A stretch of 64,000 bases of DNA, taken from an uncultured Lentisphaerales bacterium. GTDB taxonomy: Bacteria > Verrucomicrobiota > Lentisphaeria > JABSQK01 > UBA12247. A model generated the notes under the pieces. That model saw only the letters and a program-made list of their open reading frames with translations. It made no database searches and was not told the DNA's origin. Within the stretch, counting starts at the first letter, position 1, and each line of letters starts with the position of its first letter. The position numbers and the translations under genes are program-made. The stretch covers positions 64,001 through 128,000 of the forward strand of contig CALSSJ010000031.1 of the NCBI GenBank assembly GCA_943788985.1, in the 5' to 3' direction. This document shows positions 7,333 to 59,748 of this stretch, piece by piece.

Positions 7333-7391
7333 TGCGAGGTCCTGTCCAGTTGGTGATGCAGGCCTCAAGCATAGCAAGGCGATCGCCTGTG

Positions 7392-10300
7392 TCAAAACGA
7401 TGTCGTCTGTGCGTGCTCACGACACGCCTGCGCCTTACGGTTCTGGCCCATGGCATCGTAGTGCTCAGCAGCCTCCAGATACGCGCCACGCGCCTCCAAA
7501 TGCCGCGCCGCACAGGTGTGGTGCTTATTCATCCGCTTCGCTTCCAGCCAGTGTTCTGCGGCCAGCTCCCAATTTTGGCCATCCTCCGCGGCCAGCGCGC
7601 GAATCCGCGCCACTTCCTTCTCTGGCCCTATCTCGAGCTGGCACCGCTCCGCGGCCTCAAATTGCTTTGCCCAACAATGAAACTTCGCCGCGTCCCGCAT
7701 CCGCTCGCGCTCTTCGCAAAATGCGGCGGCCAACAGCTTGGTGCGCGACTCCGACTCATTGCTGACCAACTTTAAGAGTTCATCCCTCCCTGCTCGCATC
7801 CCTTCCCGAATCACGAACTCGTTCACCTCCGGTGTATCACCTGACTGCGAGGTCCGGACTAGGCAGTTGCATGCAATCTCGTATAACTCCGCATCCTCCA
7901 GCGCCCACGCAGCCTTCAGAAACTCGCCCTTGGCGCGAAGCGCCATCCCCTCCCGCATGGCCACGCCACGCTTGCAGGTCGCCACCGCCAAGCATTCCTG
8001 CGACTCCTTTGTCCGGCGAAGCTCATGGAACACACAGGCCGCCTGGTAGTACTCCTGCCTGCTGCGACAGCCCTGCGCCCGACAAAGTTTCGCGCGATCG
8101 TCCTGCCCCGCGCCCGCCCAAATCTTCTCGGCTGCCTCCCAATCCCCCTTGCCGGTCGCCACTTCCGCCCGACACCGCGCGGCCTGCACGATCTCCCCCG
8201 CACGCTCGTAGTACTCCGCCGCCGGCAGTAACTCTCCACGACGCTCCAGCACCTTGGCCAGCTCCTCCGGCTTAGCACTCTCGGTGCCGTGAGAGAGCCT
8301 AAGATCGTCCGCCTCACGCCGCATCCCAGCACGCCGATAAAGGCCGATTGCCTGCTCGATCCGGTCCAACTTCCGACAGAGCTTTGCCGCCTGCTTCCAC
8401 ATCTTCCGCGACTCGAAGTATGCCAGTCGGCAACGCGTCGACTCCTCAGCCTGTCCCGCCTTCGTGTAGCAATCCGCCGCCTCTTTCATCCGACTATGCC
8501 GCTCAAAGGCTTGCGCTGCGCGCCCCCATTCTGCGGAGTTTGCAAACAGCTCCGCCGCCTGCAGATGCTTGCCAGCCTCTGCATAGCACTCGGCAGCCTC
8601 GAGCGCCATCGACAACTCCAGATACAGCTCCGCAGCTTTGCCAAAGGCATGAACCGAGGCGTAATGCCCCGCCAGCGACTCGCGTTCACGGACCGGCTTT
8701 CCGGCCCGCCGAAAGCACTCCGCAGCCTGGCGGAAACGCTGCCGAGCCAGGAAGTAGTCCCCCTCGCTCTCCCACTCCTCAGGCGATGCGGCAAAGACCA
8801 TAAACTTCGACAGCGCGGCCGCATTATCAGACTCCAACTGACCACGAAACGGCGCCGTCTCCCACAGCGCCCTCGCTTCTGCCGTGCTCTCAAAGATTCC
8901 CAAATAGCGCCGTGCTCGCGTAACTGCCACATACGTGTGATGAATGGCACGCCGGGCGACCGGGTCCTCACGCATGGGCTCATCAGACACCAGCAATCTC
9001 TCCCAAACCTCACGGTCCCCACCAAGCGGGTTCCACAACACGCAGGCATCAAACTCCAGCCCCTTACAACTTTGCACATCGAATACACGTTCGCTGCCCA
9101 GAAGTTTCGCCAACCGGTCGCGCGCTTCTGATTCCAGCACCACTACTGCGCAGCGCGGGCCAAAGTCATTGATCTTTGCCGCGACCTCCTCCTCCGTGCC
9201 ATGCACAATCACCGGCGTCGGGCCGTGTAGCGTCGTCGACTGTAAGCCGTCGTCATCGCTGCGCCCGGTCCGCTCCCGCTGGATTGTCAGCAACGCGTTC
9301 GCCAGGCTCACAATGCTGTGCACACTCCGGAAGTTGCGGGTGAGCGAATAAATATCTGGCGCACCAGTATGGCGATCCTGGCTACGAATCAGCGTTCGCA
9401 GCTCCGCCCAGCGAAAACCACTGGGGTTCACGATCTGCTGCGGATCCGCCGCGAACAGCAGGCCATCCATGCGCCGCACCAAGCGCAGCAACAACAGCAA
9501 CTCTACTTCGGTCAGGTCCTGGCCCTCATCGCAGACCACGTGATCATACACATGCGCCGGCGCCAGCTGGCGAAGTGCAGCCCGCGCTGCATCCACGTCG
9601 TCGCTGCGATTCTGCGCTCTCAGCCAGCCCTGATACCGTTCATACACCTTGAACAGCCGCGGTCTCTCGGCCACAAACAACGGTGCCCGCTTGCGCCCCA
9701 GCCTCTCGTACGCCTCACGCGATAGTCCGACCTGCCCCGGCTCCGTACACGCGCCCTTCACAATCCCCCGAATCTCCTCCCAGGCCAATGCCGCATCTGA
9801 CAGCCGGTATGCCTGCCGATACCATTCCTCAAAGGCAGCCAGCCGAACTGACGGCAGCTCCCCGCCTGCGATCTCCGCATACAACTGTGGAAACGTGTAG
9901 AAATCAGGCACCCGCGGCGGCGTCTCCCGCCGTGACCTGAACAGATCATGAAACAACGAGCGCACAGTCTCGAGCAAAGGCTCGCTGTAGGTTACATACA
10001 GGATTCGACTCTGCGGCTGCTCCATAACCAGCCGCGCCAGCCGGTATACGCTTACCGTGGTCTTGCCGCTCCCAGCCGTGCCGCGCAGCAAAACCGGCCC
10101 TGCTAGGTACACGCTCTCCGCCTGCTCCCGTGACAGCTTCAGTTCCAAATCATTCACGGATGGGTCATCCAGCAACGCCTGCCACTCGGCCTCGTCTGCC
10201 ACGATCTCCGGCGTCAGTTCGTACCAACGAATCGACTCCACCATTGCCTCGGTCTCAGGCACATTTAGCGGATCATTTACGTACTCCAGCAGATCTGGCG

Positions 10301-10721
10301 TACCCTCCTGGTTTGGCAGCAGCGCCTCCGGGCAGTCGGGCGTCTCTGCCAAGGTTGCCGTTGCGAACTCCGCAAAATCCAAAAAACCAGTTTCTGGCAC
10401 GATATTCATCCGCCGCGCTCGATTGATATTGTCATGTCCGACAATGTCCCAGACTAAAACATGCGGCGAAAGCGCGTACGGCGGCTCAGTATCCGAGATC
10501 CGAACGACCGTAAATAGCATCCGGATTGCCCGGGTGACTCGGGCCTCATACACCGGTTTGCGGACTCCGCGAAGTGCCTTCACCCGCGTCCCATTCCCCC
10601 AGTAGCCCAGCTGCAGCCGTTCTAGCGTCTTCTGCACCTCCCCCCGAAACGGGGTCGCCTGCCCGGCTAGAAGCCCCTTTAGACGATGATGAATCAGAAT
10701 ATTGTAGAAATCGGTAGCCAT
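7392..10721 (-). CDS. SF1 UvrD-like helicase with N-terminal RelE-like domain and C-terminal TPR/SNAP-like repeats (TRANK1-like architecture)
   Basis: Helicase motifs GTAGSGKTT, YVTYS, CDEGQD, AADPQQ, LTRNFRS, KGLEFD, YVAVTRAR; repeated AAECY..AG helices; likely start MATDFYN at 10721 behind GGAGAAGAGG. Confidence 0.85.
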   Translation of the reverse strand: MATDFYNILIHHRLKGLLAGQATPFRGEVQKTLERLQLGYWGNGTRVKALRGVRKPVYEARVTRAIRMLFTVVRISDTEPPYALSPHVLVWDIVGHDNINRARRMNIVPETGFLDFAEFATATLAETPDCPEALLPNQEGTPDLLEYVNDPLNVPETEAMVESIRWYELTPEIVADEAEWQALLDDPSVNDLELKLSREQAESVYLAGPVLLRGTAGSGKTTVSVYRLARLVMEQPQSRILYVTYSEPLLETVRSLFHDLFRSRRETPPRVPDFYTFPQLYAEIAGGELPSVRLAAFEEWYRQAYRLSDAALAWEEIRGIVKGACTEPGQVGLSREAYERLGRKRAPLFVAERPRLFKVYERYQGWLRAQNRSDDVDAARAALRQLAPAHVYDHVVCDEGQDLTEVELLLLLRLVRRMDGLLFAADPQQIVNPSGFRWAELRTLIRSQDRHTGAPDIYSLTRNFRSVHSIVSLANALLTIQRERTGRSDDDGLQSTTLHGPTPVIVHGTEEEVAAKINDFGPRCAVVVLESEARDRLAKLLGSERVFDVQSCKGLEFDACVLWNPLGGDREVWERLLVSDEPMREDPVARRAIHHTYVAVTRARRYLGIFESTAEARALWETAPFRGQLESDNAAALSKFMVFAASPEEWESEGDYFLARQRFRQAAECFRRAGKPVRERESLAGHYASVHAFGKAAELYLELSMALEAAECYAEAGKHLQAAELFANSAEWGRAAQAFERHSRMKEAADCYTKAGQAEESTRCRLAYFESRKMWKQAAKLCRKLDRIEQAIGLYRRAGMRREADDLRLSHGTESAKPEELAKVLERRGELLPAAEYYERAGEIVQAARCRAEVATGKGDWEAAEKIWAGAGQDDRAKLCRAQGCRSRQEYYQAACVFHELRRTKESQECLAVATCKRGVAMREGMALRAKGEFLKAAWALEDAELYEIACNCLVRTSQSGDTPEVNEFVIREGMRAGRDELLKLVSNESESRTKLLAAAFCEERERMRDAAKFHCWAKQFEAAERCQLEIGPEKEVARIRALAAEDGQNWELAAEHWLEAKRMNKHHTCAARHLEARGAYLEAAEHYDAMGQNRKAQACREHAQTTSF

Positions 10722-10776
10722 GCCGATACCTCTTCTCCACTTCGCCGTGGAAGCAAAACCGGAAACCGAAGTACGC

Positions 10777-11928
10777 CTACTCCCGCCCTTGGCGCATTCC
10801 CACGATCTCCACATCCAGGGCCGCATCCTCGGAAGATAATGGCAGGGTCAGATCGAACAACTCCGGCTGATACTCGCCAGTGGCAGGCGGCACCACCGTG
10901 ACTCCGATCCCGATCAGCCGCAAAGCGGCTTGATCCCAGTGAGTGCGCAGTAGCCGAAATGCCGCACGAAGAATCGGGCGCTCATGGTCTGTCCCCGGCG
11001 ACAGCGTGATTTGGCGCGTGATGGTACGAAAGTCTGCCCAGCGCAACTTCAGCACAACTGTCGTAGCGAGATACGAACGATCCTTCACACGCTCCGCGAC
11101 ATGAACCGCCAAGCCCAACAGACAGGCCTCGATAGTCGCCAAATCGCCACAGTCTTCGCCAAAGGTGTTCTCGTTCGAGATAGACTTGACCGCTGACGCC
11201 TGGGAAACCGGACGCTGATCGATGCCATGGCTAAGCGCGAAGAGCCGCTCTGCGCCCTCCTGCCCGAGCAAGCCGGTCAACGCCTCGGCACCGCAACGCT
11301 GCACATCCGCGACTTTGCGGAGTCCGCAACGCTCAAGGCGTACGGCGGACTTGGGCCCAATCCCCCAGAGTCGTTGCAGGGAAAGCGGGGCCAACATTGC
11401 GGAGATCGCAGCGGGTTCTCGTGGGACAAACGTGAGCCCATTCGGCTTTTGCAGGTCGCTGGCCAGCTTAGCCAGCAGCTTATTCGGCGCGATCCCAATC
11501 GAGGCGGTCAACCCAATCTCATGCCAAATCTGTGCCTTCAGTGACTCGGCAAGAGTAATTGCTTCTTCTGCTGACGACACCTGGTCCGTGACATCGAGAA
11601 ACGCCTCGTCGACAGAAAGGCCTTCCACTTGGCTGGTTACTGCCCGAAATACGCCAAACAGTTGGTGGGAAACGTCCCGATATTGCTGCATCCGAACGGG
11701 CATGAAATGCGCGTGGGGGCAGAGCCGATGCGCAGTGCGCGACGGCATTGCCGAATGCACCCCAAACTCGCGTGCTTCATAGGACGCCGTGCAGACGACC
11801 CCGCGCTTGTCAGGCGGTGCCCCGACGATTACCGGCTCGCCTCTTAGGTGCACAGAATCCCGCTGCTCGACAGACGCGTAGAACGCGTCCATGTCTACAT
11901 GAAAAATCCAGCGGTCGGTGTCGCTCAA
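10777..11928 (-). CDS. dinB: DNA polymerase IV (Y-family)
   Basis: HVDMDAFYASVEQRD, SYEAREFGVHSAM, SVDEAFLD, NKLLAKLASDLQKPNG, little-finger C-terminus. Confidence 0.95.
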   Translation of the reverse strand: MSDTDRWIFHVDMDAFYASVEQRDSVHLRGEPVIVGAPPDKRGVVCTASYEAREFGVHSAMPSRTAHRLCPHAHFMPVRMQQYRDVSHQLFGVFRAVTSQVEGLSVDEAFLDVTDQVSSAEEAITLAESLKAQIWHEIGLTASIGIAPNKLLAKLASDLQKPNGLTFVPREPAAISAMLAPLSLQRLWGIGPKSAVRLERCGLRKVADVQRCGAEALTGLLGQEGAERLFALSHGIDQRPVSQASAVKSISNENTFGEDCGDLATIEACLLGLAVHVAERVKDRSYLATTVVLKLRWADFRTITRQITLSPGTDHERPILRAAFRLLRTHWDQAALRLIGIGVTVVPPATGEYQPELFDLTLPLSSEDAALDVEIVGMRQGRE

Positions 11929-12992
11929 CGATTGACGTGAGCGCCCTCGCTATCGTGGGCCACATCCTTTGGCACACGATTCAGCTGGAGGCGAATCTCC
12001 TGATCGGCGGTCGTGTAGTAGACATCGCGCGCCTGTGCGATCATTTGCTGCAACGTCTCCTGAAACATTGTCACCAGCAAGGTGTTCCGCGAAGTCCGGT
12101 ACTTCGGTAGAATCTTCTCGAAGTAATCAGCATCGGCCTCGACTCCAGCACGCACCCGCTGGTTATAACTCTCTGCCTCGGCAAGAATCTGCGAGGCCTC
12201 GCCCTGAGCCTGTTGCCCGAGCTTGCGGCTGAAGGCGTGTGCCCCACTGCGGCGGCTCGAGTACTCGTTCTCTGCTTCGATCACCTGGGTAAAGGCATCC
12301 AAGACCTGTCGCGGGACCTCGCGCCGGTCGAAGTACACGTTGATCGAGCTCAAGTCAATACCCACATCCAAGGCGACCAGCTTGCGCTTGAAGCGCCGCT
12401 CTACGTTGCCACGTAAGGTCTCTGAGCCTTCGTAAATCGCGCTGTCGATCGGCGTGCCAGCGACTTCCTTCACGACAGCGTTGGCCAGTGCGTTCTGAAT
12501 CATCAAATCTGCCTGACCTTCCGCGTACCCGTAGTGATAGCGCTTCAGGTTATCGATCGTGAAGTTCACACTCCAGCGCCCATGAATCACATTGTAATCT
12601 CCGGTCAAAAGATAGCTGTCGGCCGCCGTGCGTAGAGTCTCAGGGTCCGGCGGCGGGCCTTGCTGGTTGGCGGCCGCCTCCTCGTACCAGAACGAGGCAA
12701 CCACGGTGTGGCTGCGGGCCGTACGCACGCGCACCACTGAGGCAAACGGCTTCGGTAGCGCATAGTACCCCTTGCCTGGCTTCAGAGCGTCGCCCTTTAC
12801 CGCCCCAAACTGCGAGATAAAGGCCTGCTCGTTGGCATCTAGAACCGTGTAGTTGGACACCACATAGCCAATGGCGACCAGCACCATCGAGATCACAAGA
12901 ATCCGTCGAGCCAACTTCGCGGTGCGAAGAACAGCTTCTTCGCCTTCGCCACGCTGGCGGCGGCTATTGAACTGGATATCGGGGATGGGCAT
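11925..12992 (-). CDS. hflK: HflK-like SPFH/band-7 membrane protein
   Basis: Single TM, YLLTGDYNVI, VLDAFTQVIEAE, AQGEASQILAEAESY coiled coil. Confidence 0.8.
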   Translation of the reverse strand: MPIPDIQFNSRRQRGEGEEAVLRTAKLARRILVISMVLVAIGYVVSNYTVLDANEQAFISQFGAVKGDALKPGKGYYALPKPFASVVRVRTARSHTVVASFWYEEAAANQQGPPPDPETLRTAADSYLLTGDYNVIHGRWSVNFTIDNLKRYHYGYAEGQADLMIQNALANAVVKEVAGTPIDSAIYEGSETLRGNVERRFKRKLVALDVGIDLSSINVYFDRREVPRQVLDAFTQVIEAENEYSSRRSGAHAFSRKLGQQAQGEASQILAEAESYNQRVRAGVEADADYFEKILPKYRTSRNTLLVTMFQETLQQMIAQARDVYYTTADQEIRLQLNRVPKDVAHDSEGAHVNR

Positions 12993-13003
12993 GATGCGCG
13001 GGC

Positions 13004-13996
13004 TTAGTTCCGGACCGCTGGCAGCTTGGTGCCGGGCCTTGACGTGGAGTCTTGGAAACGCTTGAGTGCAGAGAACGGCGGGGTATCTGGGTCAAAGAAC
13101 AGAGTTGCCCCATGACTCAACTTCTTGAGTGCTTCGACCTCGGCCAGAAACTCGGCAAGCTCAGGCTCCTGATTGAACACGTCGTAGAACTCGGCAGCTG
13201 CTGCGTCGGCCGCACCACGCACCTTTTTGGCGCTCGCTTCCGCCTGCGCCACCACGATCCGACGTTGGCTCTCTGCTTCGGCACGAATTCGCTGTGCTTC
13301 GGCATCGCCACGGGCGAGAATCTCCTGACGAGTCGCTTCACGCTCGGCCTTCATCCGCTCAAACACCGAGATGCTGACCTTCTCGGGCAGTCCGATTTGC
13401 TTGAGCCCGACATCTACGATCTCAATCCCGAACTGGTCAAGCGAGTGAGTTTGCATGCCCGCGAGCAGATCAGCTTCGATCTGGTCGATCTTCACTTTCG
13501 TGGCATTGACATTGATCAGATCGCCAAAGTCATAACGGCTGATCACGCCGCTGCGCGTACTGCGCAGCACATTCGTCAGCAGCTCTTCCGCGACCGCAAA
13601 GCTATCACGGGTCTGGTCCACTTCCTGCACGCTGCGCAGGTACTTCATGATCTGCTCTTCACTATTCTGAATCCGCCAGCAGACGTAGACGCCGATCACG
13701 ATATTCTTGCCGTCCCTCGTGAAGGTCTCTTCCAACTCGCCAATGTTGCCGTCAAAGCACCGCACTCGACGATCCTTGCGCCATACAGTCTCGACCGGCG
13801 TGGGTAGCTTGAAATGCAGGCCCGGTGCAGCAACTCGCACTGGATTTCCCCAGCGCGTGACCACGGCGTGCTCCGTCTCCTGCACTTGGAAGGTGAAGAG
13901 TGAAATGATAAATATCGCGCACACAGCCAGCACGACAACAATCAGCGGCTTGCTGCTGTGGTGCGTTTGCGGATCGGTATGAGTATGGTCTGCCAT
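13004..13996 (-). CDS. hflC: HflC-like SPFH protein
   Basis: VVTRWGNP..PGLHFKLPTP, TRDGKNI, FGIEIVDVGLKQIGLP, VFERMKAERE; His-rich N-terminus. Confidence 0.85.
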   Translation of the reverse strand: MADHTHTDPQTHHSSKPLIVVVLAVCAIFIISLFTFQVQETEHAVVTRWGNPVRVAAPGLHFKLPTPVETVWRKDRRVRCFDGNIGELEETFTRDGKNIVIGVYVCWRIQNSEEQIMKYLRSVQEVDQTRDSFAVAEELLTNVLRSTRSGVISRYDFGDLINVNATKVKIDQIEADLLAGMQTHSLDQFGIEIVDVGLKQIGLPEKVSISVFERMKAEREATRQEILARGDAEAQRIRAEAESQRRIVVAQAEASAKKVRGAADAAAAEFYDVFNQEPELAEFLAEVEALKKLSHGATLFFDPDTPPFSALKRFQDSTSRPGTKLPAVRN

Positions 13997-14004
13997 GGTA
14001 TCCT

Positions 14005-15912
14005 CTACTTAAGCTTAAGGTCCCGAGTAAGATCAATCTCTGGATCTTCCTCGAGATTTACTTCTAGAATCTGTTTCGCACGAGTCGCAATAAACACGCA
14101 GCGCACGTCTCGCTCTGCCAGTGTCTCCATCATCAGACGTCGTGTGTAAATACTTGGTGCCTTCGCATACGCTGCACACTGCTGGGCAAACCGCAGCGAC
14201 CGCGCCTCCGGAATCAGCTTCCGCTCCTGGCGGTATGCCTCCGCATCGGCCGCCACACTGTCACTCAGCCCCTTCGCCTCATTCTGCCACGCGCGGGCAT
14301 CACCTTCTGCCCGCAACACTTTGGCCAGCAGTTCTTCTTGCGCACCAACTACCTGCTGGAAGGACTCGCCCGTTTCAACCGGTGGATGCAGATCCGTCAG
14401 CGCCACATAGGTGATCTCTACTCCCAACGGTGGCTTCACCGCCGCCACGGCCTCAGAAATCCGCCGCGTCAGCTTGGTCGCGGTGACTGTGCGACCACGA
14501 CCAACAACATCGTTAAAGCTCGACGATGCGAAGAACCGGACCAACTCGCGCTGGCAGACACCTGCCAACGGCACCCGAGGGTCATCATAGTTGTAGGCGT
14601 AAGCAAGCACATCGGCCTCAGTCTTGCCCACTCGGAAATGGATCGGGATATGAACCTGTAGCGCGGTCACCGGCACCAGTCGACTGTCCTCACCCACCTC
14701 TTCCTCGTCACTCGCAAGCAGAAAGTATCCTTCCAACGCCTCGTGGCGCTTATCCCAGGTGATCACCCGGCCTTGGGTCGTATCCAAATACGGGTCTTCG
14801 TCTTCGGGCATCCCCTCGTTCGCTTTCGCTTTCTTCTCCAACCCAACATCAATCGTCTGTACCTGGTGCGCTGGAACTCGACGAATGACCTGAAATGGCC
14901 ATGGCAGCTTCACGTGCAGGCCTGATTCGACCAGCTCCCGCTTTGAGGTGCCGCCCAGCGAGTAGGTCTCCCGAATACCAATCTCGTGCGCGCCTACCCC
15001 AACAAAACAGCCCAGCACATAGAGAATGGCAAGAGAGAGCGCCACTAGGGGCACACAGCCACGAACAACAATGGAATACACCCAGGTGTCTGAGACCTTC
15101 ACGCCAAACTGATAGTCGAGCGCAGCGGCGATATTCTCGGCGATGCTCCCGGGCTGGGTCACGAAACTCAGCGGCCGGCTCTCGTAGAGCGGTGTCACCG
15201 CTTCACCAGGAATGCGGGGCCGGTAGAAATCCAGCAGCGGACTCACTAGCAGTTCGATGGCAATAAGCGCCAGGATCGCCAAGGCTAAGATGCCGGCCGC
15301 CTTGCTCCAGCCCAGCTTCTCCTGCATCTCAGCCAACATCGCGGCCGCCAGCAAGAAGTTGAAGAACGCCGCCAGGAATGACATTTGCGCAATGGGACGC
15401 ATCCAGCGACAGCCAGCCTCACGCGAGACGCCATTCATGAAGCTTCCGCCGAGAATACACAGCACCGCCACAAATCCGGCAAATCCGGCAATGGGTACCG
15501 GAGACTGAGTCGCTGCGTTGCTGTGCGGCCCGAGGTCACGCAGCCAGAAGATGACGACGATCCCAAGCACCAACCCAACGAACACGCAGAAGATCCGAAC
15601 GCCATACTTTAGATACCCCTCGTACAACGCTCCGGCGATGCGGTCGTCACGGTCGTGGAACAGATCTTCACGGTCGTATTCGCGCTTGATCCGCCGACGG
15701 TCGTTATCCTCGTCGCGCATCGCGCGCTCTAAAAAATTGTGCCGCCAGCCAGCCAGAGCGAATAGCCAGATGATCTGAAATACCGCGGCAGCGGCCCAGG
15801 CAACAGGGTGGGAGATCCAGAACCCGGCCAGTAGAGCATACGCAATCAGCGCAAAAGTAATCAGCCCAGCAGTGCCTCTGGCGAGCAGTTCAGGACGTTG
15901 GGGCTTACTCAT
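14005..15912 (-). CDS. HflK-like SPFH protein with extra N-terminal multi-TM domain
   Basis: Multiple hydrophobic segments, then GLHVKLPWPF, LGVEITYVALTDLHPPVE, FQQVVGAQEE. Confidence 0.8.
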   Translation of the reverse strand: MSKPQRPELLARGTAGLITFALIAYALLAGFWISHPVAWAAAAVFQIIWLFALAGWRHNFLERAMRDEDNDRRRIKREYDREDLFHDRDDRIAGALYEGYLKYGVRIFCVFVGLVLGIVVIFWLRDLGPHSNAATQSPVPIAGFAGFVAVLCILGGSFMNGVSREAGCRWMRPIAQMSFLAAFFNFLLAAAMLAEMQEKLGWSKAAGILALAILALIAIELLVSPLLDFYRPRIPGEAVTPLYESRPLSFVTQPGSIAENIAAALDYQFGVKVSDTWVYSIVVRGCVPLVALSLAILYVLGCFVGVGAHEIGIRETYSLGGTSKRELVESGLHVKLPWPFQVIRRVPAHQVQTIDVGLEKKAKANEGMPEDEDPYLDTTQGRVITWDKRHEALEGYFLLASDEEEVGEDSRLVPVTALQVHIPIHFRVGKTEADVLAYAYNYDDPRVPLAGVCQRELVRFFASSSFNDVVGRGRTVTATKLTRRISEAVAAVKPPLGVEITYVALTDLHPPVETGESFQQVVGAQEELLAKVLRAEGDARAWQNEAKGLSDSVAADAEAYRQERKLIPEARSLRFAQQCAAYAKAPSIYTRRLMMETLAERDVRCVFIATRAKQILEVNLEEDPEIDLTRDLKLK

Positions 15913-28200: not shown

Positions 28201-29619
28201 TCATTGTTCCAAATTTTTAGAGAGCTGCGCCTTTAGCTGGGCCACGAGCTCAGGATGCGCCGGGGCGATGTTCACCGTCTCCTTTTCTCGAGACGTGTGA
28301 TCGTAAAGCTCGATGTGCCCATTCTTGTGGGCAATGAGTCGATAGGTATCCGTACGAATCGTGGTCGCTCGACTCTGATAGGCAAGCGCCAGATGCCCCT
28401 CGACGGTGGGGTCTTGCAGCATCGCCTGCAGCGAAACACCCTGCGCAAAGTCTGGAGTCTCCACGCCAGTCAAGTCGCACAGCGTTGGAAAGATATCCAG
28501 CGTGCTCACCACGGCATTGCTCTTGCCCCCCGCCTGCTTCATGTCCGGAGCCACCATAATCAGCGGCGAACGCAACGCCTCTTCAAACAGGCTTTGCTTG
28601 CCCCAAATGCCATGCTCGCCAAGGTGCCAGCCATGGTCGCCCCAGAGAACGATCACGGTATTCTGGTCCGCGCCGGTCTCCTTCAGCTTGGCTAGGATGT
28701 CGCCAACCAATTTGTCGGCATAGCTGACGCACGCCGCATAATGCCGCCGCACGGCCTCCGCAAACGCGAGATCCTGTCGTGGATCTCTGCCCCAGCGGTT
28801 GTACTTCATGAATTCGCCGGATCCGTGCCAGGTCGTCTTTCCTTCGGGCTTTGTGGCGTGAGGAGTCGGCGGCAACGCAACGCCGTCATAGAGATCCAAA
28901 TAGTGTTTTGGGGCACCAAAAGGCAAGTGGGGTTTCAGCAGACCAATCGCCAGAAAAAACGGTCTGTCAGCCGCGGCCAGCTCTTCGAGTTGCTTGATTC
29001 CTTCCTCAGCGATCAGCCCATCCGGGTAGATTGAGTCTGGCCCCACAGCCGCCTCAAAAAGAGCAAATTCCTTCGCGTTCTTTGGCCGCGCCTTCCCATG
29101 CGCCAAGCCGTGCATAGCACCGACTGGCGTCTTCCATACGCCGACCGGCATCAAGTGCCGATCCCAGGCATTTGGCATTTCCACCTTCGCCGCGTCATTC
29201 CAGCCCGGCCCACCGCGACCGCCAGGGTGATGCGACACCTTGCCCACCGAGACCGTGGTAAACCCATGCGAACGAAACCATTCTGGCATGCTCGGCGGAA
29301 CGCGATCCGGGGATTTGGTAACTTCCTTGGCCCGCTGAAACAGCGCGGCGTTACCTGCTGCGCCGTAGCGCCCTGTCAGCAGCGTGCAGCGGGATGGCCC
29401 GCAGCTGGGAGCGTTGACATAGTGCCGTTGGAACGCACGGCCCTGGGCCGCCAACCGGTCAATGTTCGGAGAATGAATGTGCGACGCGCCAAAGCAATTG
29501 AGCTCTGGCCGTAGATCGTCAATGCACAACAGCAGTACATTTTTGGGCGGTTCCGCTGCTCCCCCTACGCATGCAGAGAGGCAGGCCCCGAGAATAGTGG
29601 CTATGAATAAACGGCTCAT
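28201..29619 (-). CDS. Formylglycine-dependent sulfatase (iduronate-2-sulfatase-like)
   Basis: [45 protein letters not shown]; signal peptide. Confidence 0.92.
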
Positions 29620-29692
29620 GGCTTTTCCTTTCTGTTCTCAATCGGCTGAGTGGCACTGTAGCAGCCCGCGCCCGGTGACTGCTTGAAGTCCA

Positions 29693-29764
29693 GCCTCATC
29701 GTCGTAGACAGACAGCGCTGGGAAAAATCTTCCACGACAGAGAGCTCACCGAGGGCACAGAGCC
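29693..29764 (+). repeat. Third, internally deleted junction copy plus a lone hairpin arm
   Basis: GCCTCATCGTCGTAGAC (29693-29709) followed by AGCGCTGGGAAAAATCTTCCACGACAGAGAGCTCACCGAGGGCACAGAGCC. Confidence 0.7.
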
Positions 29765-29923
29765 TCACACAGGAAACCGTAACGCTTCTCGTTCGTCTCA
29801 ATCCTGCCCCTTGGGCCGCCCCCTTGAGCCCATGGAGATTCCCGGCGTGCAGCTTGCACGCGCCTGCACCGGTGGCAGAATATCGGGCACCCAACCCAAG
29901 GCATCTGACAGCAGGCAGGAAGC

Positions 29924-30481
29924 ATGGCAAACGTATTGGTATTGTATCACTCTGTCACAGACTGCACAGCGCAGATGGCGCGGTACGTCGCGGATGGGGC
30001 CGCTAGCATCAAGGGCATGGACGTGAGACTTGTCGAGTTGGGCGCCGCCACTGCAGAGGACGTCGTTTGGTGCGATGGCATCGCAGTTGGCTGTCCCACC
30101 CAGATTGGCACAGCGTCTTGGCAAATGAAGAGGTTCTTCGATGAAACGCTGGTAGACCAGTGGGCCAAGATTGATGGCAAGTTTGGCTGTGCCTTCAGTT
30201 CCTCCGGCGGTTGGGGTGGGGGCGCAGAGTTAACCTGCCAAACCATCACCAATATGCTCATCAACTACGGATTTTTGGTGTTCGGCGTAGTCGAGTACGT
30301 CACGCAAACCCACACCCTGCACTACGGCGCTGTGACGGCGAAAGCACCGCGTGACGAGGCCTCTCAGCAGGCCTGTTTTAAACTGGGCGTACGCCTGGGC
30401 GAGTGGCTCGGCGTCTATGTCGACCGTGATGCAGATCTGCATCCCTTGGCAACCCGAGTAAGCGCACTGCCAAGCAGTTGA
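29924..30481 (+). CDS. WrbA-like flavodoxin-fold NAD(P)H oxidoreductase
   Basis: VLVLYHSVTDCTAQMA, DGIAVGCPTQIG, FSSSGGWGGG. Confidence 0.85.
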   Translation: MANVLVLYHSVTDCTAQMARYVADGAASIKGMDVRLVELGAATAEDVVWCDGIAVGCPTQIGTASWQMKRFFDETLVDQWAKIDGKFGCAFSSSGGWGGGAELTCQTITNMLINYGFLVFGVVEYVTQTHTLHYGAVTAKAPRDEASQQACFKLGVRLGEWLGVYVDRDADLHPLATRVSALPSS

Positions 30482-30641
30482 TCCGTCACTGCGGATGCCG
30501 GAAGATCTTTCCCGCCCGCCGTCACAAGCAACGGGACCGTGTCAGGCCTGCGCAATACGGAAGAGGACGGGAACGAGGAAACTCGGCCTTTTTTGGGGTA
30601 AAGGTGGGGAGGCATGGAGATTAGGGCCCCCGAGCCGACCT

Positions 30642-32078
30642 TCATTTCTTCTTCTTCTTGGCAACAGCTTCTCTCGTCACTTCGGGGCGCGGGAATGCCT
30701 TCAGGTAGCTATCGAGCTTTGCCTTCATCCTGGTGCGTAACGCCGCGTATTCCGGATTTCTCGCGAGATTGGTGACTTCAGCTGGATCCCTCTCCAGATC
30801 GTAGAGGCATTCGTAGGGGCCATCTGGCTCGTCATAATAGATGGCAAACTTGTAGCGCGCACCGCGCACCCCGTACCAGTTGTTGTAGCGGGAAAACTTG
30901 TGCTCGCAGTAGACCTCTTCGCGCCAGCCAGGGGAGTCTTCTCCCTTGAGCAACTTCACCAGCGACTCACCTTGATACACCGCAGGTTGAGCCAGCCCCG
31001 CCCACTCAACAATCGTCGGTGCGATATCGAGATGCGAGCCAAGTTCAGCAATCACCTGGCCGCGCCGCTCTTGGGGAAGCGTGGGGTCATAGACGATCAA
31101 TGGCACCTGCAACGACTGCTCGTAGTGGTTCCACTTGCCAGCCAGCCCACGATCGCCCATCATGAACCCGTTATCGCCGGTGTAGACAATCACCGTATTG
31201 TCAGCCAGCCCTGCGGCTTCCAACTCCGCCAGAATGCGGGCCACCGCATTGTCAATCCCCGTGATCATTCGGAAATAGGCCCGCATGTTTACCTGGTACT
31301 TCTCGGGCGTATCCCAGCGCCAAAAATAGCGCGCCCGCGACAACTCTTTCGGATTCTTCAAAAAGCCGGGCAGCGCTCTGAAGTAGCTTTCATCATCCAG
31401 CTTAGCCAGCGGGATGAAGAGGTCATCGTAGAGCCCGTCGGCTGACTCCGGCCATTGGAAGTGGAAGCCGGGCCGCTGATCTCGGTCCTCCGCATGTGAG
31501 GCATTAAAGCTCAGCGACAGGCAGAATGGCGTATCTGCTGGAGTGGTCTTGATGAATTCGATCGCCGCATCCGCACACAGATCAGTCTCGTGGCGCAGCG
31601 AGCCATCCGGCATCTTCTTAAGATAGGGGCTTCGGTTGTACGGCTTGAAGAAGTCAAACTGCGCCTTCTTATCGTCCTTCGCATAGCGGAACCCATACTT
31701 GCCGGTGAACCCCGTCCGGTAGCCATTGGCTTTAAGATAGGCAGGATAGCTCGTGGCAATATACCGCGCTGCCACTGCTGGCTCGCCAAAATTGTAGCCA
31801 TGCGAGCGCTGGGAGAGCCCGGTCATGATTGTGGCCCGGCTGGTCGCGCAGATCGGTGTCTGGCAGAAGAAGTTTGCAAAACGGGCTCCGTTCGCCGCCA
31901 GCCGATCGAGTGTAGGCGTTTGGATTAGTTCGTTGCCATAGCAACCCAGCACATCGCTCCGCTGGTCATCGGCAAGCAGAAAAATGATATTCTTCGGGAT
32001 CACAGCTGATGGCACCTGCGCGAATAGCAGCGGGACCGCGACCAGCGTCGCACAGAGGTAAATTGACAAACGATTCAT
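30642..32078 (-). CDS. Formylglycine-dependent sulfatase
   Basis: NIIFLLADDQR, ICATSRATIMTG, GYRTGFTGK, GDNGFMMGDRGLAGKW, LYDLERDPAE. Confidence 0.92.
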   Translation of the reverse strand: MNRLSIYLCATLVAVPLLFAQVPSAVIPKNIIFLLADDQRSDVLGCYGNELIQTPTLDRLAANGARFANFFCQTPICATSRATIMTGLSQRSHGYNFGEPAVAARYIATSYPAYLKANGYRTGFTGKYGFRYAKDDKKAQFDFFKPYNRSPYLKKMPDGSLRHETDLCADAAIEFIKTTPADTPFCLSLSFNASHAEDRDQRPGFHFQWPESADGLYDDLFIPLAKLDDESYFRALPGFLKNPKELSRARYFWRWDTPEKYQVNMRAYFRMITGIDNAVARILAELEAAGLADNTVIVYTGDNGFMMGDRGLAGKWNHYEQSLQVPLIVYDPTLPQERRGQVIAELGSHLDIAPTIVEWAGLAQPAVYQGESLVKLLKGEDSPGWREEVYCEHKFSRYNNWYGVRGARYKFAIYYDEPDGPYECLYDLERDPAEVTNLARNPEYAALRTRMKAKLDSYLKAFPRPEVTREAVAKKKKK

Positions 32079-39402: not shown

Positions 39403-40734
39403 ATGCCAGATCCCACCACGAAGCTCTTCGTCCTGGACACCAACGTCATCCTTCACGACAGCAGTTGCCTCCACCACTTCCAGGAAAACGACGTCGTCAT
39501 TCCAATCACCGTCCTCGAGGAGCTTGATCACTTCAAGAAAGGGAATGACATCATCAACTTCCACGCACGGGACTTCGTGCGTCAACTCGACGCCCTGGCA
39601 GACGAGCGACTGTTCGAAGAAGGCGCGAAGATCGGCCCCGGACTAGGCCGCATTCGGATCCAACTCAACACCGAGTACCGCCAAGAGCTGTCCGAATCCT
39701 TCACGGAGAGGAAGCCAGACCACCTCATCTTGAATGTCGCTGTCACACTCTGTCGCGCGCATCCAGACAGACAGGTCATCCTAGTCTCCAAAGACGTAAA
39801 CCTGCGCATGAAGGCCAAGTCTCTTGGCATTCCCGCAGATGACTATCGCAATGATCACGTCGGTGACATCTCAACCCTCTACCCTGGATACCGCAGAATC
39901 GAGAGTATTCACTCGGAGATGATCGCAAAACTCTACGAGGCCCCCAACTGCATTGCCCCAGGCGAGTTAAGCCTTGAGTCTGAACCACTCCCCAACGAGT
40001 ATTTTATCCTGCGGAATGGCAAGCATTCCGCACTCTCCCGGATGGACCCCGATTCCGGCATGCTACACAAAATCAATCGCAACAACGCCTACGGCATCTT
40101 GCCCCGAAACGCCGAGCAGACATTTGCCCTCAATGCCCTTCTCGACCCCAGAATAAAGCTCGTCACTATTGCCGGAAAAGCTGGAACCGGCAAAACCCTG
40201 CTTGCTCTTGCCGCAGCGCTCGAGCAACACGAGAGGTACCGACAAATCCTGCAGGGACGCCCCATTGTCCCACTCGGAAATCGCGATATCGGCTTCCTCC
40301 CCGGTGATGTAAAATCAAAGCTTGATCCCTATATGCAGCCGCTCGCCGATAATCTCGCAGTCATCCAGAACCAGTTCAAGCACAACAGTGAAATGGATCG
40401 CCGCATCAACGAGATGCGCGGTGATGATCGCTTGATGCTCGCCCCTCTCGCCTACATCCGCGGACGCAGCCTCGTCGGCGTTTACTTTATCGTCGACGAA
40501 GCGCAGAACCTGACTCCGCACGAAGTTAAGACCATTATTACAAGGGCTGGAGAGGGCACAAAAGTTGTCCTTACCGGTGATATTTTTCAGATTGACCATC
40601 CCTATCTGGACAGTCACTCAAATGGCTTAACTACCCTCATCGAGCGCATGAAGGGGCAGCATCTTTACGCACATGTGAACATGGTCAAAGGCGAACGTTC
40701 CGAACTGTCCGAGCTGGCAAGTGATGTACTCTAA
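39403..40734 (+). CDS. PIN-PhoH protein (PhoH2/YlaK-like)
   Basis: VLDTNVILHD, VSKDVNLR; GKAGTGKT, RGRS, DEAQN, GDIFQID. Confidence 0.93.
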   Translation: MPDPTTKLFVLDTNVILHDSSCLHHFQENDVVIPITVLEELDHFKKGNDIINFHARDFVRQLDALADERLFEEGAKIGPGLGRIRIQLNTEYRQELSESFTERKPDHLILNVAVTLCRAHPDRQVILVSKDVNLRMKAKSLGIPADDYRNDHVGDISTLYPGYRRIESIHSEMIAKLYEAPNCIAPGELSLESEPLPNEYFILRNGKHSALSRMDPDSGMLHKINRNNAYGILPRNAEQTFALNALLDPRIKLVTIAGKAGTGKTLLALAAALEQHERYRQILQGRPIVPLGNRDIGFLPGDVKSKLDPYMQPLADNLAVIQNQFKHNSEMDRRINEMRGDDRLMLAPLAYIRGRSLVGVYFIVDEAQNLTPHEVKTIITRAGEGTKVVLTGDIFQIDHPYLDSHSNGLTTLIERMKGQHLYAHVNMVKGERSELSELASDVL

Positions 40735-47671: not shown

Positions 47672-48547
47672 ATGGCTTTATCGACTGATGGAACACGAAA
47701 AATTTTTACTGCCAAAGACTTGCTGCAGGCCAAGAAGCGCAATGATCTCCTGAAAATCGCAGAGGATAAAGGACATCACCTCAAGAAACAGAGGCGCAAC
47801 CTTCGTTACGAAGATGAGCTGTATTTGCTTCAGGCTCAGATGGTCAATCTGCAACAGTGGATCGCCAAGCACAAGATGCGGGTTGCCATCCTGTTTGAAG
47901 GCAGGGATGCTGCTGGAAAGGGCGGGTCGATCAAGCGCTTCGCCGAGCATCTGAACCCGCGGTCGATGCGAGTGGTGGCCCTCACCAAGCCGACAGACAT
48001 GGAGTCCGGGCAATGGTATTTTCGCCGCTACGTGAAGGTGCTGCCGAATCCTGGCGAGATGGTGTTCTACGATCGCAGTTGGTACAACCGTGCGGTCGTC
48101 GAACCCGTGATGGGCTTTTGCGACCGGCGACAGCATGAGCGCTTCATGGTCCAGGTGCCAGAGTTCGAGCACATGCTGTATGAAGATGGAATCTGCATCA
48201 TCAAGTTTTGGTTTTCAATCTCGCGCGAAGAACAGGAGCGACGGTTTGCTAGCCGCCTGCAGAACCCCCTGAAGGTCTGGAAGTACAGCCCAGTTGATCG
48301 CAAAGGCCAGGAACTGTGGGATCGCTACTCGTTCTATAAGGAGCAAATGTTCTCCCGCACGCACACACCCTTCTGCCCATGGACGATCGTGAGGGCCAAC
48401 GACAAGCGAACGGCCCGGTTGGAAAGTATGCGCTATGTGCTCTCGCTGTTTAACTACACCGGAAAGACCCGTGCCAAGTGTTCGCTCGCGCCCGATCCCA
48501 ACATCGTCGTGCGCTATTTCCGAGACATCGACCAGTCGGACCTTTAA
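47672..48547 (+). CDS. ppk2: Polyphosphate kinase 2
   Basis: FEGRDAAGKGG, QWYFRRY, DRSWYNRA. Confidence 0.93.
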   Translation: MALSTDGTRKIFTAKDLLQAKKRNDLLKIAEDKGHHLKKQRRNLRYEDELYLLQAQMVNLQQWIAKHKMRVAILFEGRDAAGKGGSIKRFAEHLNPRSMRVVALTKPTDMESGQWYFRRYVKVLPNPGEMVFYDRSWYNRAVVEPVMGFCDRRQHERFMVQVPEFEHMLYEDGICIIKFWFSISREEQERRFASRLQNPLKVWKYSPVDRKGQELWDRYSFYKEQMFSRTHTPFCPWTIVRANDKRTARLESMRYVLSLFNYTGKTRAKCSLAPDPNIVVRYFRDIDQSDL

Positions 48548-48549
48548 TC

Positions 48550-49350
48550 ATGCCTAGCTCAAGGACACTCACCGATGATGACGTCGCTGTTCTGAACACA
48601 GCGACCGGTCTAAAAATGCTGCTGGCAGAGCCAAAAATAGATCTGGAGCGGGCTCTGCGCTTGACCAGATACGAGCTCGAACTTCGCGCCATGCAGGCCC
48701 AGCTTGTTACGATGCAGGAGTGGATTATTCGCGAGGGTAAGCGCGTTGTCATCCTGTTTGAAGGGCGAGATGCTGCCGGAAAAGGTGGTGCAATTCGACG
48801 GATTGCCGCGCATATCAACCCGCGACACTACCGGATTGTCGCGCTGGATAAGCCTACCGCGGAGGAACGCGGCCAGTGGTACTTCCAACGCTACGTAAAC
48901 CAACTGCCAAAACCCGGCGAGATCGTGTTTTTTGATCGGAGTTGGTATAACCGGGCCGTCGTCGAACCCGTGAATGGCTTCTGCAGCGATTCCGAGTATG
49001 TCACCTTTATGACCCAGGTAAATGGCTTTGAGAAGATGATCGTGGACTCAGGCACTGCTTTGATCAAGATCTATTTCTCGATCTCCCAAGAGCAGCAAGC
49101 GGTCCGCTTTAAAGCGATTAAGCGCGATCCTCGTAAACGCTGGAAAATGACCCCGGTCGACGAGCGCGCCCAAGAGCTTTGGCATGAATACACGCACTAT
49201 AAAGAGGCGATGTTCGAGGAGACCGATACGGGGGTATGCCCGTGGATCGTGCTGGATGCAAATCGTAAGAGCGACGCGCGCTTAGAAGCCATCCGGCTTC
49301 TCCTATCTGCCATCCCGTATCAGCACGACGAACCAGAAGCGGCTCAGTAG
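48550..49350 (+). CDS. ppk2: Polyphosphate kinase 2 (second tandem copy)
   Basis: FEGRDAAGKGG, QWYFQRY, FDRSWYNRA. Confidence 0.93.
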   Translation: MPSSRTLTDDDVAVLNTATGLKMLLAEPKIDLERALRLTRYELELRAMQAQLVTMQEWIIREGKRVVILFEGRDAAGKGGAIRRIAAHINPRHYRIVALDKPTAEERGQWYFQRYVNQLPKPGEIVFFDRSWYNRAVVEPVNGFCSDSEYVTFMTQVNGFEKMIVDSGTALIKIYFSISQEQQAVRFKAIKRDPRKRWKMTPVDERAQELWHEYTHYKEAMFEETDTGVCPWIVLDANRKSDARLEAIRLLLSAIPYQHDEPEAAQ

Positions 49351-49742
49351 CAGCACACCGAGGTCGCACTGCTGGATGACGCGCCACGTGTCGGGGGACG
49401 GCGACGAATGACGACACTCGAATTAGTCATCGTCTCAAACCAGACCGTTGCTGCATTGCGGCATAGTGTGAAGCGCTCTCCAGGCATGATCACTGTCGGG
49501 CGCTTGACGCGATCACCGTCAATGAAAACGCCGTTCGACGAGCCCGCGTCGCTCAGGATTACAGATTTCCCTTCCTGGCGCAACTCGGCGTGAAACCGCG
49601 AAATTCCGTCTTCGCAAACGACCAGTTCGTTTGCCGCTTCCCGGCCGATTCGACATGGCCCCTGGGACAGATCCCAGACTAACGGCGTAGCTCCTTTCGG
49701 GACTATTCGAATAAACACTGGCAGCTCTCCGGCGGTTGACAC
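49344..49742 (-). CDS. Stand-alone FHA-domain protein
   Basis: IGR..ISRFHA..DAGSSNGVFIDG. Confidence 0.85.
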   Translation of the reverse strand: MSTAGELPVFIRIVPKGATPLVWDLSQGPCRIGREAANELVVCEDGISRFHAELRQEGKSVILSDAGSSNGVFIDGDRVKRPTVIMPGERFTLCRNAATVWFETMTNSSVVIRRRPPTRGASSSSATSVCCY

Positions 49743-49802
49743 ACATTACGTCCGTTACCAAAATTACGCTGCCTTTGGCAGGATTCAACCAGGAGACAGA
49801 AT

Positions 49803-50264
49803 ATGGCACTTCAGCCAGGCGACAAAGCACCGCAATTCAGTGGCAAGACACAGACTGGGGAGACCGTTTCACTCGACCAGTTCAGGGGCAAAACCGTCAT
49901 CCTCTATTTTTATCCCAAGGATGACACGCCCGGATGCACAAAGGAGGCTTGCTCGCTTCGTGACAACTTCGAGGTCCTGACCGAACGCGGCATCGTTGTG
50001 GTCGGTGTCAGCCCTGACGGGGTCGAGTCACATCAGAAGTTTGTAGCCAAGTATGACCTACCGTTTCAGCTGCTGGCCGACGAGGACAGGACCGTAATCG
50101 CTGCCTACGGAATTTGGGGTGAGAAGATGAACTACGGAAAGCGAAGTATGGGCATCCTGCGCCATACCTATGTGATCGGCCCGGATGGCGAAATCCGCAA
50201 GATCTTCAAGCAAGTCAAGACGGCAGAACACGCCCAGCAGATCCTGAAGTTTCTGGATTCCTGA
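49803..50264 (+). CDS. bcp: Thioredoxin-dependent peroxiredoxin Bcp
   Basis: YFYPKDDTPGCTKEAC. Confidence 0.93.
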   Translation: MALQPGDKAPQFSGKTQTGETVSLDQFRGKTVILYFYPKDDTPGCTKEACSLRDNFEVLTERGIVVVGVSPDGVESHQKFVAKYDLPFQLLADEDRTVIAAYGIWGEKMNYGKRSMGILRHTYVIGPDGEIRKIFKQVKTAEHAQQILKFLDS

Positions 50265-50273
50265 CCGGCCGCG

Positions 50274-51365: not shown

Positions 51366-51419
51366 AGAATTTCTCCGTTTGGGTTTGGTCCCTTCATTCT
51401 TAACGATGGCAACAGTAAG

Positions 51420-55188: not shown

Positions 55189-55288
55189 GCGCTAAGATTC
55201 GACGGGTTTGCAGATTCGCAACAACCGCGTTGCAAAGTGAACTGTAACCAGCTTGCCCACTTATTGCAACGTTACCGATGACATGGTG

Positions 55289-58728: not shown

Positions 58729-58771
58729 CGGGAGTGCTCCTGAGTTTTTAAGCGCAAAGGGAAAAGTCTAG

Positions 58772-59653: not shown

Positions 59654-59748
59654 CCGCTATCTCCGACAACTGGCAAATGTCAGGCCTCGGCGTACTGCCG
59701 GCCATTGCGAGCAACTGGTTCTGTGACGCTGTGACACCCGTCCAATCC

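Follow-up and report, generated by a model that had tools for sequence, protein, structure and literature searches.

RelE-type ribonucleases (RNases) are known as small two-gene toxins and, more recently, as modules of larger defence proteins; one of them, YoeB, carries a Glu-Arg-His site. Here we describe a gene found at positions 7392 to 10721 of a 64,000-nucleotide stretch of DNA from an uncultured Lentisphaerales bacterium (positions 64,001 to 128,000 of contig CALSSJ010000031.1), this whole stretch being called the window in what follows. The encoded protein permanently fuses a RelE-like domain to a UvrD-type motor followed by a repeat arm, no antitoxin being present, and the family to which it belongs extends across many bacterial phyla and Asgard archaea. 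There is little doubt about this three-module architecture, which combines a RelE-fold domain, a UvrD-type helicase and a solenoid. The same three-part order occurs in an animal TRANK1-like protein and suggests a testable function for a poorly understood animal gene family.

The gene and its parts are organized as follows.

7392..10721, minus strand: whole gene, 1,109 codons plus stop (open reading frame list, translation, full-length relatives with up to 50% identity)
10729..10738, minus strand: Shine-Dalgarno-like GGAGAAGAGG, read from the sequence, 7 nt ahead of the ATG at 10721
10398..10721, minus strand: N-terminal domain (N-domain), residues 1-108, predicted RelE/YoeB/YafQ-like (BECR) fold (AlphaFold model, Foldseek, conservation)
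10152..10397, minus strand: connector, residues 109-190 (PE..FLDF, RWY..L, EWQ), conserved and packing with the N-domain
8802..10151, minus strand: UvrD/PcrA-type superfamily 1 (SF1) helicase core, residues 191-640 (Pfam, PDB profile matches, motif conservation)
7395..8801, minus strand: alpha-solenoid of short helical repeats, residues 641-1109 (about 470 residues), opening SPEEW..GDYF..AAECFRRAG (profile matches, autocorrelation)

The gene is real, far beyond chance. All the motifs quoted in a previous sequence-only reading of this DNA (LERLQLGYW, VKALRG, VYEARVTRAIRMLFT, VWDIVGHD, SPEEWESEGDYF and AAECFRRAG) are found in the 1,109-residue translation, in the order given there. The longest open reading frame over the site (7392..10826, minus strand) encodes 1,144 residues and would cross the stop of the neighbouring dinB gene at 10777. 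The start at 10721, already adopted in the sequence-only reading, is the better one, because GGAGAAGAGG precedes its ATG and the N-termini of the relatives align there.

The SF1 helicase motif set proved intact, as had been claimed. Pfam UvrD-helicase matches the core at 3.9e-10 (40.3 bits for a cut-off of 23) and motifs Q, I, Ia and II to VI are all present, which places the core among the UvrD/Rep/PcrA helicases of the SF1A type. Walker A (GSGKT, residues 217-221), DExQ (DEGQD, 398-402), NxRS (NFRS, 463-466), KGLEF (553-557) and VTRAR (600-604) are invariant or nearly so in an alignment of 87 sequences, where G214, G217, G219, K220, D398, E399, Q401, D402, R465, K553-L555, T601 and R602 do not vary at all. 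The best relatives of solved structure are PcrA (8.2e-15) and UvrD (1.7e-13). Orthology to UvrD, PcrA, Rep or HelD was considered and rejected, the best NCBIfam match (pcrA) scoring 48.9 bits against an equivalog cut-off of 911, or about 5% of it.

The arm that follows was initially described as more than 400 residues of tetratricopeptide repeat (TPR)- or SNAP-like repeats. Helical repeats are indeed present and come closest to the type found in intraflagellar transport complex A (IFT-A) and SNAP proteins, but they are not canonical 34-residue TPRs. The Pfam matches are all sub-threshold (SNAP at 22.5 for a cut-off of 25, TPR_WDR35 and Clathrin), and the family profile retrieves from the PDB the TPR regions of IFT144 (2.6e-13), WDR19, IFT122 and WDR35 (up to 6.5e-4), with SNAP at about 3e-3. 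The motif AAxxY/FxxAG occurs 12 times in the arm versus 3 times in the first 640 residues. Since the autocorrelation peaks at lags of 43, 13 and 30 residues (z 7.1, 5.9 and 5.1) and not at 34, the arm is best seen as an alpha-solenoid built from short helices and not as an array of canonical TPRs. It is also the fastest-evolving part of the protein, with 56% identity between two Thermoanaerobaculia, versus 75% for the N-domain and 72% for the helicase.

A RelE/ParE-superfamily fold is supported for the N-domain by structural modelling. The AlphaFold2 model of residues 1-108 (predicted local distance difference test (pLDDT) 87.8, predicted template modelling score (pTM) 0.80) displays a strand (7-10), two helices (12-19 and 23-37) and three further strands (58-61, 66-76 and 84-95), that is the N-terminal strand, two helices and three- to four-stranded antiparallel sheet of the BECR fold. 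This order agrees with the RelE topology given in PMC11980606. Compared with the PDB by Foldseek, as the sequence-only reading had suggested, the model retrieves almost exclusively RelE/ParE-superfamily toxins among the matches listed, only two of which fall outside. Template modelling (TM) scores of these toxins are 0.6-0.75 when normalised by target. The best is YafQ (9lew_B, E 6.4e-4); others are YoeB, H. pylori HP0894 and HP0892, archaeal and Thermus RelE, M. tuberculosis RelK, RelE1 and RelE2, HigB and E. coli RelE, while ParE2 appears at rank 47 only. The N-domains of 4 out of 14 relatives give in-register, sub-threshold Pfam matches to Gp49, YoeB_toxin, HigB-like_toxin and ParE_like, the best being Gp49 (0.0026, 18.2 bits for a cut-off of 23.9). 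A language-model search with residues 1-108 points to clusters of ParE_like, ParE_toxin and ParE-like_toxin at 0.83-0.85 and is taken as a lead only. The RelE/ParE-like N-domain proposed earlier thus stands as a fold, through the trimmed model, the weak Pfam matches and the language-model lead, but no significant sequence match accompanies it, and by sequence the domain does not join any RelE/ParE family.

A nuclease-type site in the N-domain is plausible from residue conservation, which reaches 221/221 for H96, 220/221 for both R61 and R67, 219/221 for E59, 217/221 for K48 and 214/221 for D97. By a YoeB alignment that is non-significant, R67 may correspond to the catalytic Arg65 of YoeB and, by extension, H96 to its His83. 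The connector contributes the conserved columns F113, L114, R165 and W166, without a family match, and residues 1-190 are modelled as one confident body (pLDDT 92.3, pTM 0.90). No antitoxin-like small open reading frame lies between dinB and the gene, and no neighbour is conserved across 11 related loci with flanks, a small sample from which the contigs of the closest relatives (50% identity) were left out.

Joint inheritance of the three parts is seen in many bacterial phyla as well as in Heimdallarchaeota. Of the candidates scored in a word-indexed search, 341 are relatives at E≤1e-3, and the best of them other than the protein itself share 46-50% identity over the full length. The named relatives come from Rhodothermales, Verrucomicrobiota, Thermoanaerobaculia/Acidobacteriota, Limnocylindrales and Binatia metagenome-assembled genomes and are labelled merely helicase II/PcrA or TPR protein. 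When 1.84 billion representatives were scanned exhaustively with HMMER, 4,846 matches were obtained at E≤1e-3 and 350 clusters at E≤1e-30. At least 16 loci were confirmed by a species-genome scan, in Thermoanaerobaculia, three cyanobacteria, Clostridium lentum, Armatimonas, Neomarinimicrobiota, Acidobacteriota, Spirochaetia and a Heimdallarchaeote, and cluster look-ups confirmed further members in Heimdallarchaeota. The distribution is patchy, and short-branched clades of a quick tree bring together different phyla (Chloroflexota, Binatia and Acidobacteriota in one case; Fidelibacterota, Acidobacteriota and Spirochaetota in another). Two relatives found on one 10,228-bp contig bear consecutive locus tags, which suggests a tandem pair.

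The N-domain was detected (E≤1e-5) in 119 of 120 relatives from the word search and in 121 of 150 from the HMMER scan. Many of the 29 misses start inside the helicase and look like fragments. When 11 of them were re-checked by hhalign, two turned out to have clearly divergent, collinear N-domains (P0207, probability 95%; P0246, 88%), three more reached 34-66%, and 6 of the 11 have a mutually related N-terminal region. Effector swapping at the N-terminus was also considered and no evidence for it was found in these 11 apparent N-domain-less relatives, several of which carry divergent, collinear N-domains. The entries P0211, P0167 / L006:5269-8511, P0197 and P0198 cover the Heimdallarchaeota members and variants of about 1,900 residues, which add an N-terminal oligonucleotide-binding (OB) fold (tRNA_anti-codon) ahead of the N-domain and cluster with the Heimdall rows in the tree.

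TRANK1 appears in PMC3463515 as a neuropsychiatric gene from genome-wide association studies, of unknown function, and in PMC8517014 as up-regulated after virus infection. A 2012 screen (PMC3463515) includes it among the knock-downs that reduce ciliation; this entry and the IFT-A likeness of the repeat arm may be a coincidence of repeat type. Our literature search found no paper joining TRANK1 with UvrD and bacteria, none on domain analysis among the listed papers that name both TRANK1 and a helicase, nor any that links TRANK1 to RelE, toxins, phage defence or RNases, with subscription journals and domain databases outside the search, so that an earlier description is possible.

The sequence-only reading had pointed to the same order of parts and to similar motifs in animal TRANK1, and both were borne out beyond the helicase core, in a sea-star protein that NCBI names TRANK1-like. 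The comparison with animals was made on this one protein. Run against long proteins, the 87-sequence profile has its best match in the Patiria miniata protein XP_038048876.1 (P0261; 3,300 residues, E 7.6e-75); a single-sequence search of long proteins gave no TRANK1, only one fungal and one plant protein. Aligned by hhalign with the whole of P0261, the N-domain profile produces a single strong match at 1084-1188 (probability 90.8%, E 1.2e-6, score 52.3), about 120 residues ahead of a Walker A site near 1310. By comparison, none of sixty locally shuffled copies exceeds 22.9 (mean 16.6, standard deviation 2.4), and the reversed sequence scores 16.8. The elements YEAR, R-I/L-L-W/F and W-D-I-V...H are aligned, and the Glu-x-Arg, Arg and His positions are kept. 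Further along the chain, the helicase sub-profile matches 1584-1909 (2.9e-49) and the repeat-opening sub-profile 2019-2106 (2.7e-7), with the W..G.YF...AA.C..R.GDE pattern kept, while positions 601-798 of the full profile match 1954-2157 (4.1e-18). Because the matches of the N-domain, helicase and repeats are collinear, homology to the animal protein spans all three modules in the same order.

Other relatives vary around this layout. In a 1,644-residue protein (P0257), the N-domain (1.3e-8) is followed by the UvrD core, the first repeats and strong ankyrin repeats at about 950-1070, in a compact TRANK1-like arrangement. The helicase and repeat opening are shared by the plant, algal and fungal relatives, in which the N-domain was not detected. 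In a plant protein (P0260) and an algal one (P0262), a Sen1/Upf1-type SF1B helicase (AAA_11/AAA_12, DUF6469) stands upstream of the UvrD-like core and repeat opening, and the plant protein ends with UBA, thioredoxin-like and UBX domains. In a quick tree based on the helicase region, the four rows from eukaryotes group as a single clade (Shimodaira-Hasegawa-like approximate likelihood ratio test (SH-aLRT) 99), outside a weakly supported (81) prokaryotic clade. An Asgard origin of the eukaryotic clade is unsupported by this tree, where eukaryotes are not nested among the Heimdall rows and the backbone is weak (81). Rooting is unsafe because the outgroups have very long branches.

The reading that we find best, and hold tentatively, is that the protein is an RNase which is driven by ATP, controls itself and acts in conflict or stress. 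The N-domain would be an active endoribonuclease using the conserved Glu59/Arg61/Arg67/His96 cluster and, as there is no separate antitoxin, the helicase and the repeat arm would have to restrain its activity from within the chain. The arm would bind a protein or complex serving as a cue, for which the sequence-only reading had hypothesised a phage protein or a stalled complex, and ATP binding or translocation on nucleic acid would then license RNA cleavage. The target might be mRNA located in the ribosomal A site, as it is for RelE-family toxins, or else RNA that the motor threads, and the outcome would be a shut-down of translation during conflict (phage, mobile element) or stress. We count in favour of this reading the confident fold model, the conserved catalytic-type residues, the intact motor, the joint inheritance, the lack of an antitoxin or partner gene and published precedents, together with conflict-like signals: candidate defence genes reported by PADLOC at 4 of the 11 related loci, clades mixing phyla, the tandem pair and the fast-evolving repeat arm.

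Several observations weigh against it, starting with the N-domain itself. Foldseek with the 190-residue model gave no meaningful PDB match, RelE-like matches being obtained only after trimming to 108 residues, and the E-values of the trimmed model are modest, with a TM score of 0.6. The N-domain of the window protein has no Pfam match even at E≤10, and a hidden Markov model of the N-domain only, run against PDB sequences, retrieved no toxin. Alignments by hhalign with single E. coli YoeB, YafQ and RelE are not significant; YoeB is the best (E 0.061, 52 in-register columns), nine unrelated small control proteins giving E 0.11-0.62. The mapping of E59, R67 and H96 onto YoeB catalytic residues depends on this non-significant alignment. 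Since proteins of the ParE type have this fold without being nucleases, the fold alone is no proof of RNase activity. As for the motor, its substrate may be DNA as well as RNA.

The absence of a significant match between the window protein and any toxin family, the empty result of the 190-residue model and Foldseek E-values of merely about 1e-3 could also mean that the RelE likeness is convergent or a model artefact, the N-domain being a small alpha/beta module without relation to RelE, for instance an accessory through which the helicase binds nucleic acid. We find this very improbable: almost all the structural matches listed come from one superfamily, four relatives independently give in-register weak Pfam matches to four families of one clan, an independent language-model search points to the RelE/ParE clan, and the order of secondary structures fits the RelE topology in PMC11980606.

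A conflict role was further confronted with gene neighbourhoods. PADLOC matches lie within about 7 kb of the gene at 4 of the 11 related loci, as listed here.

L005:4622-12828: PDC-S17 nuclease, UvrD-like helicase and DruE-like helicase (PADLOC)
L008:6604-10802: pPIWI-RE, PprRE/PprDinG (PADLOC)
L014: PDC-S03 (PADLOC)
L015:15544-18201: PDC-M55B/C candidate system, GmrSD-like (PADLOC)

A fifth locus has a patatin-type effector match only. On the enrichment in defence islands that the sequence-only reading had proposed to check, this small sample is mixed, with PADLOC neighbours at these four loci but none at the other seven nor in the window. On the side of the objections, there are no defence genes around the gene in the window, the four neighbours scanned gave no PADLOC match, and the locus looks housekeeping-like (dinB, HflK/Band7, P-type ATPase, TAXI-type binding protein); 7 of the 11 related loci likewise lack defence neighbours. 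PADLOC-DB v2 run on the window protein itself matched the helicase core only (mostly GajB models, with RTasHel and NERD+UvrD ones), without any system with partner genes. In Thermoanaerobaculia, the gene sits in synteny beside selB and is 65% identical between two genomes, against 73% for SelB and 74% for an M20 peptidase. Because of this synteny and of a divergence close to that of housekeeping neighbours, inheritance looks vertical in this class, which again speaks against a conflict role. The sequence-only reading had counted vertical conservation across the lineage as a point against defence: this is partly borne out, in Thermoanaerobaculia, whereas elsewhere clades mix phyla.

These data bring forward a different explanation, that of a housekeeping RNA or ribosome quality-control factor, in which the RelE-like domain would dock the ribosome or RNA, the motor would remodel or clear stalled complexes and the arm would act as a scaffold for partners, the protein being of constitutive use and no suicide effector. 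The non-defence neighbourhoods of the window and of 7 of the 11 related loci, the selB synteny with near-housekeeping divergence, the strong purifying conservation of an N-domain without antitoxin and the persistence of eukaryotic relatives, which form a single clade, in animals, plants, algae and fungi are all consistent with it. They are opposed by the patchy distribution with clades mixing phyla, the candidate defence genes beside 4 of the 11 loci, the fast evolution of the repeat arm and the lack of a match to any known quality-control family. We judge this role unlikely, and it stays a serious rival because neighbourhoods are mixed and the gene behaves vertically in one class.

The flanks of the Thermoanaerobaculia loci offer additional observations. 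A small open reading frame of about 120 residues lies upstream (L002:9565-9927 and L004:9519-9902, 42% identical between loci) and one of about 450 residues downstream (L001:7853-9196 and L004:13442-14821, 58% identical, no clear family). A conserved partner gene was sought and rejected, the downstream frames being related only within Thermoanaerobaculia and neither neighbour being found in other phyla.

In the window, the immediate upstream neighbour is the following gene.

10777..11928, minus strand: DNA polymerase IV (dinB), NCBIfam 7.3e-111, above cut-off, 55 bp upstream of the helicase gene

The position directly downstream of dinB on the same strand was correctly noted in the sequence-only reading, which had seen there a possible co-regulation by stress; this part is not supported. 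A dinB or other IMS-family gene is adjacent in none of the 11 related loci. Two LexA-box consensus patterns occur at chance frequency (31 for 23.6 expected; 21 for 20.4), with none upstream of dinB or of the helicase gene, and promoter and terminator scans did no better than shuffles. The dinB link looks incidental. One could nevertheless imagine a DNA-damage or replication-stress helicase co-expressed with dinB, whose N-domain would be a non-catalytic ParE-like module binding, for example, gyrase, RNA polymerase or a repair factor, and whose repeats would recruit partners, loosely like the accessory functions of UvrD/HelD. The 55-bp same-strand spacing without a convincing terminator, the UvrD/PcrA-type core, an SOS-response-associated peptidase about 4.5 kb away at one related locus and the ParE-like clusters as nearest language-model neighbours would fit such an enzyme. 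Besides the 0/11 adjacency and the LexA results, it is contradicted by the conserved Glu/Arg/Arg/His set, more typical of nuclease members, and by the best structural matches, which are RNases (YafQ, YoeB, RelE, HigB), with ParE2 far down the ranking. We consider it improbable.

The surroundings of the gene deserve a few descriptive remarks. A tight same-strand run (10777-15912, minus strand) comprises two Band 7 proteins (635 and 330 residues), an HflK-like protein (355 residues) whose gene overlaps dinB by 4 bp, dinB and then the helicase gene; a P-type ATPase is also found farther upstream on the same strand. Such a mix of functions is unusual for an apparent single transcription unit. Downstream, an open reading frame for an NMT1_3/TAXI-type binding protein overlaps the helicase-gene stop by 4 bp. 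A sigma-70-like site (7368-7395, minus strand; TTGACA, 16 nt, TG-TATGCT; 10/12) at the end of the helicase gene could drive this downstream gene; such sites are no more numerous in the region than in shuffles. The remainder of the window is ordinary chromosome, with sulfatases (28201-32078), Ser/Thr kinases, prolyl-tRNA synthetase, PPK2 and one tRNA-Tyr gene. Two tandem PPK2 genes, a protein with an FHA domain and two large Ser/Thr kinases, one of which carries a double zinc ribbon, occupy 47672-49350 (plus strand) and 49344-62550 (minus strand). Together with the sulfatases, they may point to a genome of PVC-group type or a similar one. A fusion of PIN_4 and PhoH (PhoH2-type RNase/ATPase) at 39403-40734 (plus strand) is another nuclease-NTPase fusion within the window.

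Taken further, an ATP-driven RNase would lead to a broader proposal, which we regard as speculative and somewhat doubtful. The prokaryotic family would represent the ancestral state of the animal TRANK1 core, with an active RelE/YoeB-type endoribonuclease as its N-module. TRANK1 would then be a helicase-coupled, possibly ribosome-directed RNase and a second Schlafen-like, RNA-targeting arm of innate immunity derived from prokaryotic conflict systems, while the bacterial protein would act on its own, without antitoxin, as an abortive-infection or stress RNase. No paper stating this ancestry or RNase reading was found in the literature searched, subscription journals lying outside. If the N-domain is a nuclease, TRANK1 gains a concrete, testable activity, and controlled RNA cleavage in bacteria has a new single-gene layout; otherwise, the family still constitutes a large uncharacterised class of helicases with a defined domain map.

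Set beside described systems, the window protein shares parts with several of them. With those type II toxins that belong to the RelE/ParE superfamily (YoeB, YafQ, RelE, HigB), its N-domain shares the fold and the order of secondary structures, and its conserved basic, Glu and His residues on the sheet may correspond to theirs. These toxins are stand-alone proteins of about 90 residues, whereas the window protein has no adjacent antitoxin and is fused to a helicase and repeats, the sequence similarity of its N-domain remaining below every family threshold. Multidomain RelE/ParE toxins are surveyed by Gerdes 2025 (PMC11980606), in the accessible part of which the words helicase, UvrD and TPR are absent. 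With the SF1A helicases UvrD, PcrA and Rep, the likeness concerns the motif set and the core fold family, and the difference lies in the extra N- and C-terminal modules. Membership of Gabija was rejected, GajB models matching the helicase core only (2e-14) and a GajA-type partner being absent. The repeats resemble the solenoids of IFT-A, SNAP and clathrin type, but the window protein has no WD40 beta-propeller and the likeness may be one of repeat type only. The TRANK1-like sea-star protein differs by being three times longer (3,300 residues for 1,109) and by its ankyrin repeats at about 283-834, for which the window protein has no Ank match. It also has about 1,000 residues before the N-domain, about 1,100 after the matched repeats and a long insertion inside the N-domain.

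Other resemblances are by analogy. Schlafen group III proteins also join an RNase to an SF1 helicase; their nuclease fold differs and no homology is claimed, although SLFN-g3_helicase gives a weak, sub-threshold match (2e-4) at the Walker A region. Like sensors of the signal transduction ATPases with numerous domains (STAND) type, the protein would carry in a single chain an effector, an NTPase and a repeat arm, the NTPase here being an SF1 helicase and not a STAND ATPase. An N-terminal RelE-like domain on a Tiamat-associated helicase is mentioned in a preprint (10.64898/2026.09.30.754977), to which the likeness is by description only. The window protein differs from the CARF/Tiamat systems in having neither a CARF domain nor a Tiamat/GHKL neighbour. 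What it would share with RelE systems built as larger modules is the principle of a RelE-like nuclease placed under the control of a sensor or NTPase module.

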